Virus record (IMG/VR): IMGVR_UViG_2675903654_000024
Coordinates: 1-6,995 of that record
From: a virus
Lineage: Duplodnaviria; Heunggongvirae; Uroviricota; Caudoviricetes
Reading direction: 5' to 3' (one strand)
Length of the DNA: 6,995 bases
A program made the translations under genes and the position numbers. Below are positions 1-6,995 of this stretch, piece after piece; within the stretch, counting starts at the first letter, position 1; each line of letters opens with the position of its first letter. The notes beneath the pieces were generated by a model. It ran no database searches, was not told where the DNA came from, and saw only the letters and a list, made by a program, of their open reading frames with translations.

Positions 1-1032
1 GAAGGCTGGGCCATACTCCTCCGGCAGAAGCAGAAAAAGCTTATTATGCTTCCATCGGAAACGATGATCTGGCAGCCTGAGTTCACAGATAAAACACTCT
101 CCAGGAAACCCGGGGCGGTTCAGATCGCAAGACAGGAACGGCTTGGGACGTCTGCCAATCAAAGCCTGCTTACATCCTTGCGTAACCTACGTGAAGAATT
201 AGCAAACCCTGCAACTGATTTGGATGTTACGTTTGATCTCTTGCGTCAGCACAGAACAGCATTTAGATCTAATGTTCAGGGAGATGCTATGGTCTTCCCC
301 AACCAGGCAAAAGCAGCTACCAATATGGTAGAGAATGCAATGTCAAAAGACCTTCGTAACGCAGTTGCTAAAAACCTCGGTGCATCAGACGCAGCAAAAT
401 ACCTTAAAGCAAATTCCGATTATGCAAACGTTTATAATAAGGTGCTTAATAAAAACATTGCTAACAAGCTCAATAAGGCAAGTAGTGAAGCCAGCCCTGA
501 ACTTATAAGTACCGTTGTATTAAGCAGAAAACCATCTGACGTGAAACGAATCTGGAGCGCACTGGATGATAAGGGGAAAGATGCTATGCGTGCAGCTTAC
601 GTCAGCAAAATAGCGGAAAAGGCCGGGGACTCTCCAGCCAAGTTCATCACTGAAGTTAATAAGCTGAAATCTCAGTCAGGCGGTGAAATTTACAACACTA
701 TTTTTTCTGGAAAGCACATGAAAGAGCTTGATGCTCTTCATGAAGTTCTACAGCAAACAGCAAGGTCAGACACCGCAAATGTAGTAACTCAGACGGGGCA
801 ATTGCAAGCCAACAGGATAAGGACGATTGGCGCAACTGCGACCCTTGGTGTATCACTGGGACTTGAGGCTGGTTTCGGTGCAATCATGCGCTTGTATGAG
901 TCCAAAGCAGCAAGGAATGCTCTCTTACGTCTGGCAAACACCAAAGCAGGAACGCCAGCCTATGAAAGAGCGTTAAGTAACGCTGCAAATGCCGTCAGGC
1001 CGCTGTTTGCTACTGAGGCAACACGGCAGTAA
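1..1032 (+). CDS. Virion ejection / DNA-transfer protein (P22 gp16-like), 3' portion; gene starts upstream of the window
   Basis: The reading frame of the listed 46..1032 ORF is open from base 1 (gaa ggc tgg ... no stop before the Met at 46), and there is no Shine-Dalgarno before the ATG at 46, so the gene most likely continues upstream. The protein is Ala/Lys/Asn/Ser-rich and low in complexity, typical of internal ejection proteins. Its position immediately upstream of the immI module matches the P22 order 16 - (sieA) - mnt - arc - ant - 9. Product assignment is by synteny and composition, not by recognised sequence identity. Confidence 0.5.
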
Positions 1033-1056
1033 CGTATGGGAAATTGGATTCAATCG

Positions 1057-1446
1057 CTAACATTTTCTTTTTACTTTTCCAACAAAAGCTTTGGTTGAAT
1101 CCATATTTCCATAACCGGAAATGGTTTTTGACATTAAAACTGTTCCAGTAGGATGTATTACCCATGAGTCGATAACGCGTTGAGTTTCGCCATTCGCGCC
1201 GATTCCTATGATGGAGTTTTTAGACAATTCTTTGTAAGCCATGCCGCCCGCATCTGTCCCAGAATATGTGATGCTGGCATCTTCACCGCTTGTCTTAATG
1301 ATGAATGTTCCACTAAAACCATCTTCTTCCGGATGGAAATTATTTCGCTCTGAATAGCTTATTCCGCGCATATCTCCAACGACCCAGCACTCTGCTGTAG
1401 CCCCAAAAGATATGAATAAGAACATAGCAGCAAGAAATTGCTTCAC
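1057..1446 (-). CDS. Sec-signal-peptide secreted/periplasmic protein of unknown function (prophage cargo gene)
   Basis: GTG start (plus-strand cac at 1444..1446) preceded on the coding strand by a strong AAGGAGG Shine-Dalgarno (plus-strand cctcctt at 1452..1458, 5-nt spacer). N-terminus MKQFLAAMFLFISFGATA/EC has a basic n-region, hydrophobic core and A-T-A cleavage motif. There is no lipobox (Cys is not at +1). The mature ~111 aa has two Cys, one near each end. Confidence 0.7.
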   Translation of the reverse strand: MKQFLAAMFLFISFGATAECWVVGDMRGISYSERNNFHPEEDGFSGTFIIKTSGEDASITYSGTDAGGMAYKELSKNSIIGIGANGETQRVIDSWVIHPTGTVLMSKTISGYGNMDSTKAFVGKVKRKC

Positions 1447-1814
1447 ACCAACCTCCTTAGTTTTGAGCAGGATACCAGATGATACTTTATTGGTGGAGTG
1501 GTGTGTGAAAACGTGTCAACGACAAACCATCCACAACTTGGACGAATGATTTAGCAAAAAGTGCTATTTTTGGTGTTTGGTGTCATAGAAACGTGAATAG
1601 CTTACTTTTCAACATTGCATGAAACTTGCAGGAAATGTGACATTACCTTATAGGTAACTTCGGCGAAAATGCAGTAAATGTGAAACGTAATGGTTTAAAC
1701 ATGTCGCTAAAGTGGTTGTAAGTTAGCCTCCGAAGGATTGCTGATAGCTTTGTTATAGTATTAAATGACATTTGACATAGTTGGATACTTAGCTGCGGCT
1801 ATCAAGATGGAGGT

Positions 1815-2264
1815 ATGTTTATGCTCACTTGTTTTGATGTCGCCGACTACTTCTTGGCGCATTGCGATGAAGAAAGTGGCGACATTATCTCTAACCTAAA
1901 AATTCAGAAGTTGACGTATTATGCCCAAGGGTTTTCTCTGGTTCTTCTGGGTAAGCCGCTATTTAATGAGAAAATTGAAGCCTGGATGCATGGGCCAGTA
2001 GTTCCTGAATTGTATCGTAAATATAGGGACTGTGGTAACGGCGCTTTACCTGCGCCAGAAAACTTTGACGCTAAAAAATTCAGTGAAGATGAAATTGAAT
2101 TGCTGGATGAGGTGTATAAAGTTTATGGTCAGTTTTCTGCCTGGAAACTGCGCAATATGACTCACGAAGAGCAGCCATGGAAAGATGCTTACATTGAGGG
2201 TGCGGTTAGCCAAGAAATCACACTTGATTCTATGAAAGGTTTTTTCAAAACGTTAATTAACTGA
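1815..2264 (+). CDS. Panacea/DUF4065-domain protein (PanA/SocA-type antitoxin-like)
   Basis: Residues ~27-67 (NLKIQKLTYYAQGFSLVLLGKPLFNEKIEAWMHGPVVPELY) match the signature I recall for DUF4065/Panacea 'phage-associated protein' family members (KLQKLLYYAQ ... GKPLF ... EAWxxGPVxPxxY). Size (147-149 aa) fits the family. GGAGG at 1809..1813 is 1 nt from the ATG at 1815 and 7 nt from the in-frame ATG at 1821, so 1821 is the more likely true start. TTGACA hexamer at 1772..1777 upstream. Confidence 0.7.
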   Translation: MFMLTCFDVADYFLAHCDEESGDIISNLKIQKLTYYAQGFSLVLLGKPLFNEKIEAWMHGPVVPELYRKYRDCGNGALPAPENFDAKKFSEDEIELLDEVYKVYGQFSAWKLRNMTHEEQPWKDAYIEGAVSQEITLDSMKGFFKTLIN

Positions 2265-2269
2265 CGTGT

Positions 2270-2692
2270 ATGTCTAGAGTTAAGGGAAGAATAAAACAGA
2301 GGGATAAAGAGAGCTCTGCTACTGTTGGCCTCTCTATCCATCACGAATCTCATGATGTAGACAAAAGTCCGCCTGTATTTTCTCTTAGATACCTACAAAA
2401 GGGGTATTGCCTAGATTGCTGCCAAAAGCATGAAAAGGCAGCATTTGCAGATAGGCTGTTCAGGTTAAGTCAGATGTCATGGGATGAGATACGAAAATCT
2501 GATAAACACGGGCTTGGGACGGAAAAAATTGCCAGAAACGCGATAAAGGCTCCGATTCCTAAGCATGTTACTCAAGATGTGGATTTCATTGCGTTCAGAT
2601 TTTGCTCTAAGGCACCTATGGTTGGTTATAAGATAGGAGCCACTTTTTATGTCTTATGGCTCGACAGGGAGTTCAAGCTATACAAGCACTAA
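2270..2692 (+). CDS. Hypothetical basic protein; candidate toxin/effector partner co-transcribed with the Panacea-domain gene
   Basis: ATG at 2270 lies 5 nt after the upstream stop (tga 2262..2264) with no independent Shine-Dalgarno, suggesting translational coupling. 140 aa, Lys/Arg/His-rich, no hydrophobic segment, a CLDCC cysteine cluster, and a C-terminus (GYKIGATFYVLWLDREFKLYKH) loosely reminiscent of RelE/ParE-type toxin C-termini; that resemblance is weak and unverified. Followed immediately by a strong intrinsic terminator. Confidence 0.6.
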   Translation: MSRVKGRIKQRDKESSATVGLSIHHESHDVDKSPPVFSLRYLQKGYCLDCCQKHEKAAFADRLFRLSQMSWDEIRKSDKHGLGTEKIARNAIKAPIPKHVTQDVDFIAFRFCSKAPMVGYKIGATFYVLWLDREFKLYKH

Positions 2693-2693
2693 T

Positions 2694-2719
2694 AAAACCC
2701 ACCGTCAGGTGGGTTTTTT
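2694..2719. terminator. Bidirectional rho-independent terminator between the convergent Panacea operon and the zinc-ribbon gene
   Basis: Perfect 10-bp stem AAAACCCACC (2694..2703) / GGTGGGTTTT (2708..2717), 4-nt loop GTCA, T-run 2714..2719 on the plus strand and an A-run on the left flank (U-run for the minus-strand transcript). Lies 1 nt after the stop of 2270..2692 and 17 nt after the stop of the minus-strand gene 2736..2939. Confidence 0.75.
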
Positions 2720-2735
2720 GTTGGAGATAAAATGG

Positions 2736-2939
2736 TTAACCAAATCGATCCTTAAAGCGTCTATCGCTGTTGCGTCTCTCCATTTTACTGTTGCAGTACG
2801 GACAAAGATGCTGTTTCTTTCCATCGATAGTCCATGTGAAGTACTTTTTCTTAAATCCAGCACCACAGATATCGCAACTTCTTGGTTTAAACATGCTGGC
2901 TATGAAGACAAGAACAACAAATCCTATGATCCATTCCAT
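2736..2939 (-). CDS. Small membrane-anchored zinc-ribbon protein (N-terminal transmembrane helix plus CxxC-N20-CxxC)
   Basis: 67 aa. N-terminal hydrophobic segment MEWIIGFVVLVFIASMF, then CDIC ... CPYC with about 20 residues between the Cys pairs (zinc-ribbon pattern), and a basic C-terminal tail. Weak AGGT ribosome-binding site upstream on the minus strand. The two overlapping plus-strand ORFs lack these protein-like features. Confidence 0.6.
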   Translation of the reverse strand: MEWIIGFVVLVFIASMFKPRSCDICGAGFKKKYFTWTIDGKKQHLCPYCNSKMERRNSDRRFKDRFG

Positions 2940-3080
2940 ATCATGTACCTGTTTTAACTTTATTTTTTGTTTTTTAGGGATTAATCAGAAACTTTATCTT
3001 GCGATTAAGCAAAGCTACTAGCTAACAAAAGAGTGCGTATACAATCAATCGTTTCACATCAACCTCAACAAGGAGAAATC

Positions 3081-3266
3081 ATGACCATAGAAGAACGCCT
3101 GAACAACATTGAGTTGAACCAAACCCTGCTTGACCAGCGACTTTCAGATCTTGAGCTTAAAGATCTTGATGCGCAAATATCAGAAGCAGAAGCCAAGCTC
3201 TCCAGCCTAAACCACCGCAAGAAGCAAATCCGCAACAGAATTACTCAGGGACGCGGAAGCTGTTGA
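3081..3266 (+). CDS. Small coiled-coil protein, hypothetical
   Basis: ATG at 3081 is preceded by AAGGAG (3070..3075) at 5-nt spacing. The listed ORF start at 3033 is a GTG without a good ribosome-binding site, so I take 3081 as the start (61 aa). Sequence is Glu/Leu/Lys/Asn-rich (IEERLNNIELNQTLLDQRLSDLELKDLDAQISEAEAKL), consistent with a coiled coil. Its 3' end overlaps the convergent gene 3241..3450 by 26 bp. Confidence 0.5.
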   Translation: MTIEERLNNIELNQTLLDQRLSDLELKDLDAQISEAEAKLSSLNHRKKQIRNRITQGRGSC

Positions 3267-3450
3267 GGTGGGATGCTAGGTCTCTATCGTTAAAATCAAG
3301 GCTGCTAATCATTTCATTGTAAATGGCGTTTTTATCTTCCATTGGCAGTCTTGAGTAAACCAGACACAGAGCATATTTCAGGGAGTTTAGCTCTTTCTCT
3401 AGCTCTTCCTTGCTTGACGTTTTTGACTTAATAAACTGTTTTTTATTCAT
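3241..3450 (-). CDS. Hypothetical 69-aa protein translationally coupled to the end of mnt
   Basis: Its start codon overlaps the mnt stop in an ATGA arrangement (plus-strand tcat at 3447..3450), the classic sign of co-transcription and translational coupling with the upstream Mnt-like gene. No recognisable domain. Confidence 0.55.
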   Translation of the reverse strand: MNKKQFIKSKTSSKEELEKELNSLKYALCLVYSRLPMEDKNAIYNEMISSLDFNDRDLASHLNSFRVPE

Positions 3451-3695
3451 TTTGCATCCTTACCATACATGGTTTTCAGTGTTTCAAGCAGCGCCTCTTT
3501 GAATTTGTCAGCTTCTTGCTGAGCAAATGACTCAACTGACTTTGGCGACCTATCTTCATCAATCGCGGCTTGCAAAATCATGACGATCTCGGAGTTAACA
3601 GAGCGACCATTTTTTGATGCTCTGACAGCAAGAGCCTCGCGCAAAGATTCAGGGATTCTTACCGTAGTTGGAGAAATTGACACACCCTTTGCCAT
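3447..3695 (-). CDS. mnt: Mnt-like ribbon-helix-helix repressor (immI maintenance-of-lysogeny repressor)
   Basis: 82 aa. The N-terminal segment VRIPESLREALAVRASKNGRSVNSEIVMILQAAI aligns with the P22 Mnt motif as I recall it (FRMPMEVREKLKFRAEANGRSMNSELLQIVQDAL). Divergent from an Arc-like gene, as in P22 immI. AGGTG Shine-Dalgarno upstream on the minus strand. Confidence 0.85.
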   Translation of the reverse strand: MAKGVSISPTTVRIPESLREALAVRASKNGRSVNSEIVMILQAAIDEDRSPKSVESFAQQEADKFKEALLETLKTMYGKDAK

Positions 3696-3809
3696 AGCAC
3701 ACCTTTGGTATTCAATTTGATATCAAAGTGTATGCAAAAGAAATTTGACTAGATATACTCACTTTGCTATCTTTTGTATTCGAAAAGAGTCGCTTGTGCG
3801 GAGGGTAAC
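3696..3809. promoter_or_regulatory. Divergent immI control region (candidate Pant, Pmnt and Arc/Mnt operators)
   Basis: 114-bp gap between divergent mnt and arc. Plus strand: TTGACT (3745..3750), 17 bp, TATCTT (3768..3773) as candidate Pant, about 35 nt upstream of arc. Inverted repeat AGATA (3751..3755) / TATCT (3768..3772) sits inside that spacer, where the Arc operator lies in P22. Perfect 12-bp palindrome TTTGATATCAAA at 3716..3727, 21 bp upstream of the mnt start. Operator assignments are by analogy to P22 only. Confidence 0.55.
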
Positions 3810-3962
3810 ATGGAGAAAGAAATAAGTAAGATTTTGGTAAGGATGCCGCAGTCGTTAAAGGACGCTATCGGTAGCAGGGCAAAGGAAGAATGCCGGTCGT
3901 TTAACTCGGAAGTGATTAAGCGGTTGATAGACAGCCTGAAGAGAGAGGGGATAACGGTGTGA
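3810..3962 (+). CDS. arc: Arc-like ribbon-helix-helix repressor
   Basis: The listed ORF starts at 3774, but the in-frame ATG at 3810 is preceded by GGAGGG (3800..3805), giving 50 aa. The sequence KILVRMPQSLKDAIGSRAKEECRSFNSEVIKRLIDSLKREG aligns with P22 Arc as I recall it (FNLRWPREVLDLVRKVAEENGRSVNSEIYQRVMESFKKEG). Divergent from mnt, upstream of ant. Confidence 0.85.
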   Translation: MEKEISKILVRMPQSLKDAIGSRAKEECRSFNSEVIKRLIDSLKREGITV

Positions 3963-4114
3963 TTCGCTTGGATGCAGTAGTCAAAGAGATTGCGATTACC
4001 ATTTTAAGACCAAATTTTGTTCATGGCGAATCATTTGGCACGAACGAAAAATTGAGAAGAGAAAGAGTATTCAGTGGCAAGCGCACATTTTCAGAAGTGA
4101 TGCTTGATGCGGCA

Positions 4115-4194
4115 AAGAAATCAAAACAGTGAAGCCCCAACTGCGGTAACAGTCAGGGCTTCGGTTGTCGGTAAATTCGTGGAGAAAAACCAAC
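4115..4194 (-). ncRNA. Candidate sar-like antisense RNA covering the ant ribosome-binding site (approximate ends)
   Basis: Minus-strand extended -10 (TGcTATACT; plus-strand AGTATA at 4201..4206 with gca at 4207..4209) would start transcription near 4193, running leftward across the ant Shine-Dalgarno (GGAGA 4181..4185). The hairpin at 4131..4162 forms a fully paired 13-bp stem (two G-U pairs, loop UUACCG) only in the minus-strand RNA, followed by U-rich ACUGUUUUGAUUUCUUU; the plus-strand version has two C-A mismatches. P22 has a ~69-nt sar RNA with this role. Ends are inferred, not measured. Confidence 0.4.
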
Positions 4195-5097
4195 ATGAAT
4201 AGTATAGCAATTTTAGAAGCAGTGAACACCTCTTACGTACCATTCAACGGTCAGCAAATTATCACCGCCATGGCTGCCGGAGTTGCATATGTTGCGATGA
4301 AGCCAATCGTTGAAAACCTTGGAATGAGCTGGTCAACGCAGCAAACAAAACTCATGAAGCAGATTAGCAAATTCAACTGTGTTCATATGAACATGGTTGC
4401 CGCTGATGGGAAGCTTCGTAAGCTACTCTGCCTTCCTTTGAAGAAGTTAAATGGATGGCTGTTCAGCATCAACCCCGAGAAAGTTCGAGCTGACATCCGC
4501 GATAAACTGATTCAGTACCAGGAAGAATGCTTTACTGTACTGCATGACTACTGGACAAAGGGAAAGGCAGAAAATGCACGTAAGAAAACATCTGTTGATG
4601 ACAGGACTCCGCTTCGTGATGCTGTAAATATGCTAGTCAGCAAAAAGCATCTAATGTACCCAGAAGCTTATGCAATGATTCATCAGCGTTTCAATGTGGA
4701 AAGTATTGAAGAGCTTGATGCATCTCAGATACCGCAAGCCGTAGAGTACATCCACAGGGTAGTGCTTGAAGGTGAGTTCATCGGCAAACAAGAGAAGAAG
4801 CCCAACGGGCTTTCCGCAAAAGAAACAGACATCCTTGTATGGCTGTGGGATTATGCCAACCGCTCACAGGCATTATTCCGCGAACTGTATCCGGCGCTGA
4901 AACAAATTCAATCGAACTATTCCGGCAGATGTCATGACTGCGGTTATGAGTTCTCCCGTATTATCGATATAGCGAGAGACGTTTTAATCAATCACACACT
5001 AGATGTTGATATTAATGAGCCAGACGGACCAACGAATCGTTCCGCATGGATGAGACTTAAGAATAAAGAATTACCTCCTTCAGTACATAACTACTGA
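4195..5097 (+). CDS. ant: Antirepressor Ant (P22 Ant-like)
   Basis: The listed ORF begins at a TTG (4165), but the in-frame ATG at 4195 follows GGAGA (4181..4185) and gives exactly 300 aa, the length of P22 Ant. It is directly downstream of arc and upstream of the tailspike gene, as in P22 immI. Identity is by synteny and length; my recall of the P22 Ant sequence itself is partial. Confidence 0.8.
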
Positions 5098-5115
5098 CAG
5101 ATAACCAACGCAACG

Positions 5116-5140
5116 ACCCAGCTTCGGCTGGGTTTTTTTT
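5116..5140 (+). terminator. Rho-independent terminator downstream of ant
   Basis: Stem ACCCAGC (5116..5122) / GCTGGGT (5127..5133) with a TTCG tetraloop, followed by an 8-T run (5133..5140), 19 nt after the ant stop codon. Confidence 0.8.
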
Positions 5141-5198
5141 ATGCCCAAAATTCACCGTAGCCATGCTGCGGCGATTCCTTGCATCTGGAGCAAATTAA

Positions 5199-6995
5199 AT
5201 GACAGACATTACAGCCAATGTGATCGTATCGATGCCTTCGCAACTCTTCACTATGGCGCGTTCTTTTAAAGCGGTTGCCAATGGCAAAATTTATATTGGT
5301 AAAATTGACACTGACCCTGTAAATCCTGAAAACCAGATTCAGGTTTATGTGGAGAACGAAGATGGTTCTCACGTCCCTGTTTCGCAACCAATCACCATTA
5401 ACGCTGCTGGTTATCCGGTATATAACGGACAGATTGCCAAGTTCGTAACTGTACAGAATCACTCCATGGCTGTTTATGATGCATATGGTGCACAACAATT
5501 CTATTATCCTGATCTACTTAAATATTCTCCAGACCAGTTAAGGGCTGAGCTTTCTGGCCCTGATGGCGCATCTCTGGTTGGTTATGGAGGCACAACCGTA
5601 AAGATTGAGCTGGAGATCTTGAAAGCTACACATGATTCATTAATTGATAAAACAGGATTTAACGCTATTGGCCGCTTTCTCAATCTTTCAGAGCTTCGCT
5701 CCTGTGTTCCAGAGGAGGCAGGGCAGATTGTATACGTAGCATCAGCAGCTAGCACTACACATGCTGAAAACCACCTTGGTGGCGGCTTTTTCGAGTCTGT
5801 TGATAACATTCAGGCGTGGGCTGATGATGGTGGAATTGTAATCAAGCCAGAAACTGGAACGATGGTATGGAGACGAATTAATTTTACCACTTACGACATG
5901 CAATTTTGGGGGGTGAAACCTGACGGAGTCACAGATAACGCAACAGCTATAACTCTTGCAACTAACTTTGCCCGCTCAAACAAATGCATTCTAGAGGCTC
6001 CTGCTGGAAACATAAATACATCAAAAACAATCCCAATTTATGACAATATGGGAATTAGAGGACAGGGAAAGGCTGAAGCGACAGTTTTTTATAAAACAAC
6101 AAATGACAAAATAGATCTCACAAAAAATGGAGAAGTAATTCTTCAGGTGGATGCATTATGTGCTTTTATACCAAAGCAATGGGATCTAACAGATAACTCA
6201 ATGAGTTCATTTTGTGTTAACGGTAGAGTTGAAAACTGCATGTTTAGAAGGCTTGGCTTAACACAAGAAAATGTAGATTCTTATAGAAATTATTACGGAC
6301 TGTTTTTAGGAAAATCAGCAGCACCAGTTATCAGACAGTCAATTTTTGAATGTGCTTATATCGGATGCTTCTCTTATGTGCCGTTCTCTGGCGTAATGGA
6401 AATGGTCGGTTTCCCACAATATCCAGGGAAAGGATATGCTGGAGTTTTATTTGAAGATTTTAGGGATGGTCAAATAAAAGTAATAGGCACTTCTATGGAT
6501 ATGCGCCTTGTTCAGGTTAACGGTTACCAGTTGTCATTTAGAATGTCAGGAATGCAATATACCACCATGACCAATTGTACTGCTGAAAACTGCACGCCAA
6601 TGGATGGGGAGTCAATTTGCTATGCATTTGATTTTGTAAATCCGTATTGCATTGTCATGAATACTTGTGCAACAGAATTTGTTAAGGGTGGGCAACTTCG
6701 TGTTAGCGTTCAGGGAAACCCATCATTCAGACCATCTATTATTGTCAATGGCTTTCTGCCAATTGATCAACAAAGCCCGGTAGTGCAAACACCTATAATA
6801 GATATTGATAATGGTGGCGTAGTTGAAATGAGTGTCATATTAAATGGTGGAGATTGGGCTATAAATCCATCTGCTACAAATTTAGCCGTACCAAGAGCAA
6901 GCGGAAATGGGTTGAAAGCAAGGTTAATAGGTGTAAACGGGTCGCCTGTTTCGATCTGGAGCGTGTCTCCTGGCGCAGATGTGAAGGAGTTCTAA
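5199..6995 (+). CDS. Tailspike protein: P22 gp9-like N-terminal head-binding domain fused to a divergent receptor-binding domain
   Basis: GGAG at 5187..5190, 8 nt before the ATG. The first ~113 aa ([34 protein letters not shown] ... DGSHV ... INAAG ... VYNGQ ... VTVQ.HSMA.YDA ... LKYSPDQ) closely match the P22 gp9 head-binding domain as I recall it. The remaining ~485 aa has no similarity I recognise to the P22 receptor-binding domain; it is Asn/Gly/Cys-rich with recurring VNG/LNG/IDNGG motifs suggesting a beta-helix or beta-rich fold. Complete ORF ending at taa 6993..6995. Confidence 0.9.

Follow-up and report, generated by a model that had tools for sequence, protein, structure and literature searches.

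The sar antisense RNA and a probable small gene between arc and ant in the immI region of a P22-like virus

The DNA analysed here (hereafter the window) is a stretch of 6,995 nucleotides from a virus of the Caudoviricetes, corresponding to positions 1 to 6,995 of the IMG/VR record IMGVR_UViG_2675903654_000024; unless a locus of another sequence is named, coordinates refer to this window. The whole stretch is the immI or 'ant moron' region of a P22-like podovirus (Lederbergvirus), from either a phage or a prophage. In P22-like phages, passages of the study that describes the 'ant moron' (Villafane, Casjens and co-workers 2008, PMC2629481) situate it with the tail-needle/injection genes on one side and the tailspike gene on the other, as a section with high gene flux that contains immI and variable genes of unknown function; the window likewise holds immI amid variable genes. 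Within immI, we read the order of features as mnt, Pant, arc, a small extra gene, a canonical sar and ant, and we consider this order almost certain.

The leftmost of these features is an mnt-type repressor gene (3447..3695, minus strand) encoding an 82-aa ribbon-helix-helix protein (Pfam Arc 41.8 bits, FitA-like_RHH 34.4 bits), which is transcribed divergently from arc and occupies the position of mnt in P22 and epsilon34. A promoter scan of the divergent mnt-arc control region reported a Pant-like promoter on the plus strand (3745..3773; TTGACT-17-TATCTT with TG), and its position, compared with the Pant/Pmnt region of X01916 and EU570103, suggests that it is the equivalent of Pant. The arc gene (3810..3962, plus strand) encodes a 50-aa Arc-family repressor with the C-terminus ...REGITV (Pfam Arc 45.8 bits); this product is divergent from P22 Arc and is named 'Arc protein' in phiv205-1. 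Further right, the antirepressor gene ant (4195..5097, plus strand) encodes 300 aa matching both P22_AR_N (153.6 bits) and P22_AR_C (87.4 bits) in Pfam, and is preceded by a Shine-Dalgarno sequence, GGAG (4181..4184), whose counterpart in the alignment with X01916 carries the ribosome binding site annotation. A tailspike gene with a P22 head-binding domain (Pfam 215.8 bits) lies at 5199..6995 on the plus strand.

Between the end of arc (3962) and the start codon of ant (ATG, 4195) lies a gap, 3963..4194, of 232 bp, the length given in the initial annotation, compared to 68 bp in P22 (record X01916, arc end 531 and ant start 600). The initial annotation had rightly observed that the gap is longer than in P22, but had read it as an expanded intergenic region. 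Instead, arc and sar are separated by 165 additional bp, which form a 57-codon open reading frame (ORF57; 3959..4132, plus strand) and not an expanded regulatory RNA; the gap is long because ORF57 sits in it. ORF57 begins with a GTG that shares bases with the arc stop (GTGA) and has GAGGGG some 5 nt ahead of it; at the other end, the TGA stop codon (4130..4132) extends over the first two bases of the sar terminator hairpin. Other phages with this mnt and arc are similar to the window as far as 3962, and similarity to P22 and epsilon34 breaks at 4130; from about 4130 rightwards, DNA alignment shows near-identity of the window to both P22 and epsilon34, which is the outcome of the comparison with the P22 sar locus that the initial annotation had proposed.

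The whole window was scanned against Rfam covariance models. On the minus strand, 4194..4128 matches the sar family RF00262 with 87.1 bits (E 5.8e-18; gathering score 43) over model positions 1-68 of 68. The same model gives 97.8 bits for P22 sar and 95.6 bits for epsilon34 sar, at the homologous places. Another family, ctRNA_pGA1, overlaps sar with 27.5 bits against 45 and was dismissed, as it shares only the hairpin-plus-U shape. We place the sar RNA at 4124..4194 on the minus strand, with a predicted +1 at G4194, adjoining the ant ATG at 4195, and a 3' end in the U run 4126..4123. This span predicts a transcript of 69-72 nt, shorter than the 75-80 nt first suggested and usual for sar.

Folding of the minus-strand 75-mer starting at 4194, a check likewise suggested at the outset, yields the two hairpins of sar at -31.1 kcal/mol (z -5.8), with 0 of 200 shuffles folding as well and a centroid fold that agrees with the minimum free energy (MFE) fold. 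Stem-loop I (4167..4194), defined by the RF00262 match and the MFE fold, has a 6-bp stem pairing 4194..4189 with 4172..4167 and carries CUCC in its loop opposite the ant GGAG, so that the expected complementarity to the ant Shine-Dalgarno is found. Stem-loop II (4131..4162), the G+C-rich hairpin of a predicted intrinsic terminator, had been located correctly on the minus strand, but its count of 13 bp with two G-U pairs needs correction: it contains 14 pairs, of which seven are G-C and three are G-U, closed by the four-nucleotide loop UACC. The U-rich tract that had been seen behind it is there as the tail ACUGUUUUGA, in the feature list given as ACUGUUUU. Terminator-like sites in 3400..4500 are not enriched over shuffles (one found, 0.9 expected), and the significance of sar therefore rests on the covariance-model match and the comparative tests.

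The minus-strand extended -10 that had been pointed out at 4201..4209 is confirmed as TGCTATACT, the reverse complement of these positions. It is homologous to the stretch that EU570103 annotates as Psar, lies inside ant codons 3-5, 6 nt from G4194, and is identical in the window, P22 and epsilon34. Among all ant 5' types, the Psar -10 reads TGCTATACT, TGCTACACT or TGCTAAACT and stands at a constant distance from the ant ATG. The accompanying -35, GTGTTC at 4229..4224, is weak, and activity would therefore rest on the extended -10, presumably through its TG extension. A second promoter-like site on the minus strand, 4029..4001, was dismissed with 9 of 12 matches and a total count of such sites at chance level.

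Comparison with known systems places the element firmly in its family. Over sar and the ant 5' end, epsilon34 (EU570103) is 98.9% identical to the window, and its sar misc_RNA and Psar features align base for base with 4128..4194 and about 4200..4229; the record describes that promoter as "located by similarity with P22 Psar". P22 sar differs from the window by three substitutions ahead of the 3' tail, and the earlier remark that the sequence here differs from P22 sar thus does not hold. One of these substitutions, U to C in stem I, turns a P22 G-U pair into a G-C pair, while the terminator hairpin is identical in both. The tails are CACUGUUUU in the window and CAACUUUA in P22, the U run being longer in the window. 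The RNA shares with P22 sar and epsilon34 its locus (antisense, just upstream of the ant ATG), its length class and its two-hairpin architecture, with an anti-Shine-Dalgarno loop on the 5' side and the terminator and U residues on the 3' side. It is antisense to the ant leader between the upstream stop and the ant start of immI, and at the sequence level an antisense Psar lies inside the ant 5' end. The upstream gene is ORF57 and not arc: the 3' side of sar adjoins the ORF57 stop codon in the window, as it adjoins the arc stop in P22 and epsilon34. Judged by sequence and predicted fold, the minus-strand element from 4194 to about 4124 is sar itself and not an analogue, which upholds and sharpens the initial proposal of a sar-like antisense RNA. 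The sar element is already known and already curated.

Covariation was assessed on an alignment of 11 different sar sequences, whose loci represent four ant leaders and include a Klebsiella aerogenes prophage. Across these aligned sequences, 13 of the 14 pairs of stem II never vary. In stem I, three of six pairs show compensatory changes on both sides, with 95.5% of cells paired across the four ant 5' types. The covariation score exceeds all 500 shuffles and all slid controls.

In Salmonella phage P22, Psar gives rise to a sar RNA of about 68-69 nt, which base-pairs with the leader of ant and prevents translation of Ant. This repression was reportedly established by experiment, by Liao et al. 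in 1987, Wu et al. in 1987, and Schaefer and McClure in 1997. Passages of PMC2629481 and PMC13397905 also cite literature for the repression of Ant translation by P22 sar. We infer a corresponding course of events for the window sequence. RNA polymerase would start at Psar, transcribe leftwards from G4194 and stop at the hairpin 4162..4131 and its U run; the product, about 70 nt long, would match the ant leader in complementarity without a mismatch. The CUCC of loop I would then pair with the ant GGAG, occluding the ribosome binding site and repressing Ant synthesis. Because its G-U pairs turn into C-A on the plus strand, the terminator would be one-directional, acting on the minus strand only, and transcripts from Pant would read through into ant.

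The position of stem-loop II between two plus-strand genes invites another reading, in which this hairpin would attenuate or terminate plus-strand transcripts and limit read-through from arc and ORF57 into ant. A plus-strand hairpin can still form (-22.2 kcal/mol, z -2.6), but the three G-U pairs become C-A mismatches that open internal loops, in line with the strand asymmetry described in the initial annotation. Moreover, the hairpin is followed on the plus strand by GGTTGTCGGTAAATT, which is no T run, and a terminator scan of 3400..4500 reported no plus-strand terminator. In P22, as is generally known, ant is expressed from Pant through this same sequence. Altogether we regard a plus-strand attenuator as extremely improbable. 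Only slightly less improbable, and still very unlikely in our judgement, is that the element is a decayed, non-functional remnant in a defective prophage, a reading suggested by the frequent degradation of immI regions in P22-like prophages noted in passages of PMC2629481. Against decay, the three genes mnt, arc and ant keep their full length and match Pfam strongly, no pair of sar is broken, the lone stem I change relative to P22 converts a pair from G-U to G-C, and the -10 matches those of P22 and epsilon34 exactly. An intact-looking sar, this being a known regulator, matters mainly for correct annotation, for example of phiv205-1: in the stretch retrieved from that record, ORF57 appears under the name hypothetical protein and sar is absent from the features.

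The layout arc-ORF57-sar-ant is shared, at 96.7-96.9% DNA identity, by Escherichia phage phiv205-1 (MN340231) and prophages of E. coli APEC O1, S88 and ATCC 11775, and this architecture is therefore already present in annotated public genomes. ORF57 is CDS QGF19908.1 ('hypothetical protein') in phiv205-1 and is also called as a CDS by PGAP in the listed E. coli genomes. The arc-ORF57-sar-ant stretch is found at a coverage of at least 80% in 64 of 5426 complete E. coli genomes, APEC O1, S88 and ATCC 11775 among them. Wherever it was found, ORF57 stands in the order arc-ORF57-sar-ant, together with at least four different ant 5' ends. The product matches PHROG 17642, a family of unknown function, over its full length (residues 2-57 to profile positions 2-57 of 57, E 1.3e-43), and has no match in Pfam, NCBIfam or PDB. 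A word-indexed search of 5.8e9 proteins returned about 10 clusters of homologues, all at 78% identity or above and none more distant, and when 1.84e9 representatives were searched exhaustively with HMMER, the only additions were weak matches to proteins of 305-2283 aa, which are probably spurious. The one-genome-per-species contigs scanned hold no relative of ORF57, while E. coli and K. aerogenes prophages do carry it; the representative genomes are evidently ones that lack it. ORF57 is thus an orphan of no assigned function.

ORF57 is, in our judgement, probably a real gene. Its orphan status, without remote homologues, would also fit a spurious frame, the 165-bp insert (3963..4129) then being a non-coding leader or a structured RNA. 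Such a reading can also point to weak purifying selection (pN/pS 0.3-0.56, on at most 12 substitutions), to several frameshifted alleles, and to the low confidence of a single-sequence AlphaFold2 model (three helices, pLDDT 57). A structured RNA was nevertheless rejected, as the insert has no Rfam match and neither of its strands folds better than shuffled sequence (z -0.67 and +0.53). Several features of context speak for translation: no stop interrupts the frame in any of the 32 intact loci fetched, which represent five alleles, a 45-nt insertion in one allele is in-frame, and the start overlaps the arc stop behind its GAGGGG. The pN/pS values, though drawn from so few substitutions, count on this side as well. 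In addition, the same slot holds six other unrelated ORF families, nearly all with shared junctions, of which one is a bona fide Pfam zf-C4_ClpX domain. On this evidence a spurious frame seems unlikely. As a gene, ORF57 would be translationally coupled to arc and co-transcribed from Pant; its translation and function are proposed here from the arrangement of the sequence.

Several variants of the locus deserve mention. Among ORF57 alleles in the databases, several are truncated or frameshifted, the frameshifts lying near the 3' A runs (P0004, P0006, P0008-P0010). Forms of 77 aa read through the sar terminator, one of them from a complete E. coli chromosome. The 45-nt insertion is flanked by a GAGAAGAGAAAGAGT direct repeat (L007 1542..1760). 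In a Klebsiella aerogenes prophage (L005 3236..4114), arc-ORF57-sar precedes an antirepressor that has a KilA-N N-terminal domain and no P22_AR_N. The sar of this prophage has a stem-loop I rewritten to fit the different leader (Rfam 62.6 bits) and an unchanged terminator hairpin.

To survey the interval between arc and sar, IMG/VR was scanned for the conserved sar terminator, which is present in at least 120 stretches; 105 of the matches listed had enough flanking sequence to be analysed. Among these, Arc ends at the hairpin as in P22 in 57 of 105 loci, with a gap of 62-70 nt (98 nt in one sequence), and one small ORF lies between arc and sar in 43 of 105 (about 40%). Five further loci are unclear, and one has a different ribbon-helix-helix protein ending at the hairpin. 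The slot is empty in P22 and epsilon34, holds ORF57 in the window, and is occupied by unrelated small genes in other relatives.

Among the matches listed, the slot ORFs fall into at least seven unrelated families of 57-89 codons. The most frequent is a Cys-rich family of 67 aa (phrog_7150; 19 loci), followed by ORF57 itself (seven loci), a 73-aa family (phrog_11805, as in phage 611R6; five loci) and an 89-aa family with a hydrophobic N-terminal segment and a predicted coiled coil (phrog_27312; five loci). Two loci each carry an 80-aa family, a 74-aa zinc-ribbon family, and a 60-aa family with the bona fide ClpX C4 zinc finger (zf-C4_ClpX, Pfam 43 bits against a cut-off of 27; for example L077). 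The ClpX-type family may be a mimic of the zinc-binding domain of ClpX. In Pfam and PHROGs, no slot ORF matched a family whose function is known. Nearly all of these ORFs start with ATGA or GTGA over the arc stop, in the common left junction GAGGGGATAACGGT[A/G]TGA, and all stop at the TGA inside TGAAGCCCC, as illustrated by L036, L088, L066, L068, L077 and L003, in each of which the ORF ends at the sar hairpin. Because all stop at that TGA, their last codons (…K-S, K-Q, K-R) are encoded by the A run that is the U tract of sar.

With variable ORFs between two conserved junctions, the arc-sar interval behaves as a cassette slot. Passages of PMC2629481 found by term search describe variability of the whole region and no arc-sar slot with fixed junctions. 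Since the slot genes ride on Pant, it is reasonable to hypothesise that they act in anti-defence or host takeover: their expression would come as a brief burst right after infection, followed by Arc shut-off, and Mnt would silence them in lysogens. By analogy only, acr-aca operons also combine an early strong promoter, shut off by a small repressor of the same operon, with co-transcribed variable small ORFs, whereas in the Pant operon the repressor comes first. From this comparative analysis we tentatively suggest, while rating it as rather unlikely, that the interval is a dedicated exchange slot for small accessory genes and that the slot ORFs, including ORF57, are early-expressed accessory, anti-defence or host-modulating proteins. 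If this were true, ORF57 would be an uncharacterised anti-defence or host-modulating protein. The slot gives a short, defined list of candidate early-expressed accessory proteins, and the P22 system is genetically tractable.

Other parts of the window contain further features. On the plus strand, the product of 1815..2264 (149 aa) carries a SocA/Panacea antitoxin domain (Pfam 87 bits), and 5 nt after this gene 2270..2692 encodes a 140-aa protein with a weak MAG6450-family match only; within the ant moron, the two genes have the look of a toxin-antitoxin or defence module. A perfect G+C hairpin at 2694..2716 (minus strand) sits between an A run and a T run (AAACCCACCUGACGGUGGGUUUU); its match to Rfam sroH (18.4 bits against 80) is confined to the terminator end of that family. 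Its place between the convergent ORFs 2270..2692 (plus strand) and 2736..2939 (minus strand) makes it a probable intrinsic terminator acting in both directions. Three small ORFs separate the Panacea module from mnt, and all stay below the Pfam cut-off: one of 67 aa (2736..2939, minus strand), zinc-ribbon-like with CxxC...CxxC, one of 77 aa (3033..3266, plus strand), coiled-coil-like, and one of 69 aa (3241..3450, minus strand). The 129-aa ORF at 1057..1446 (minus strand), with no match in Pfam or NCBIfam, has a hydrophobic, signal-peptide-like N-terminus (MKQFLAAMFLFISFGATA) and may encode a secreted or periplasmic moron product. At the other end of the window, the tailspike (5199..6995) is mosaic, joining a P22-type head-binding N-terminus to another receptor-binding part. 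The latter differs from that of phiv205-1 and, in the phage collection, matches only Escherichia phage TL-2011b (E. coli O103:H25), at 95% DNA identity.
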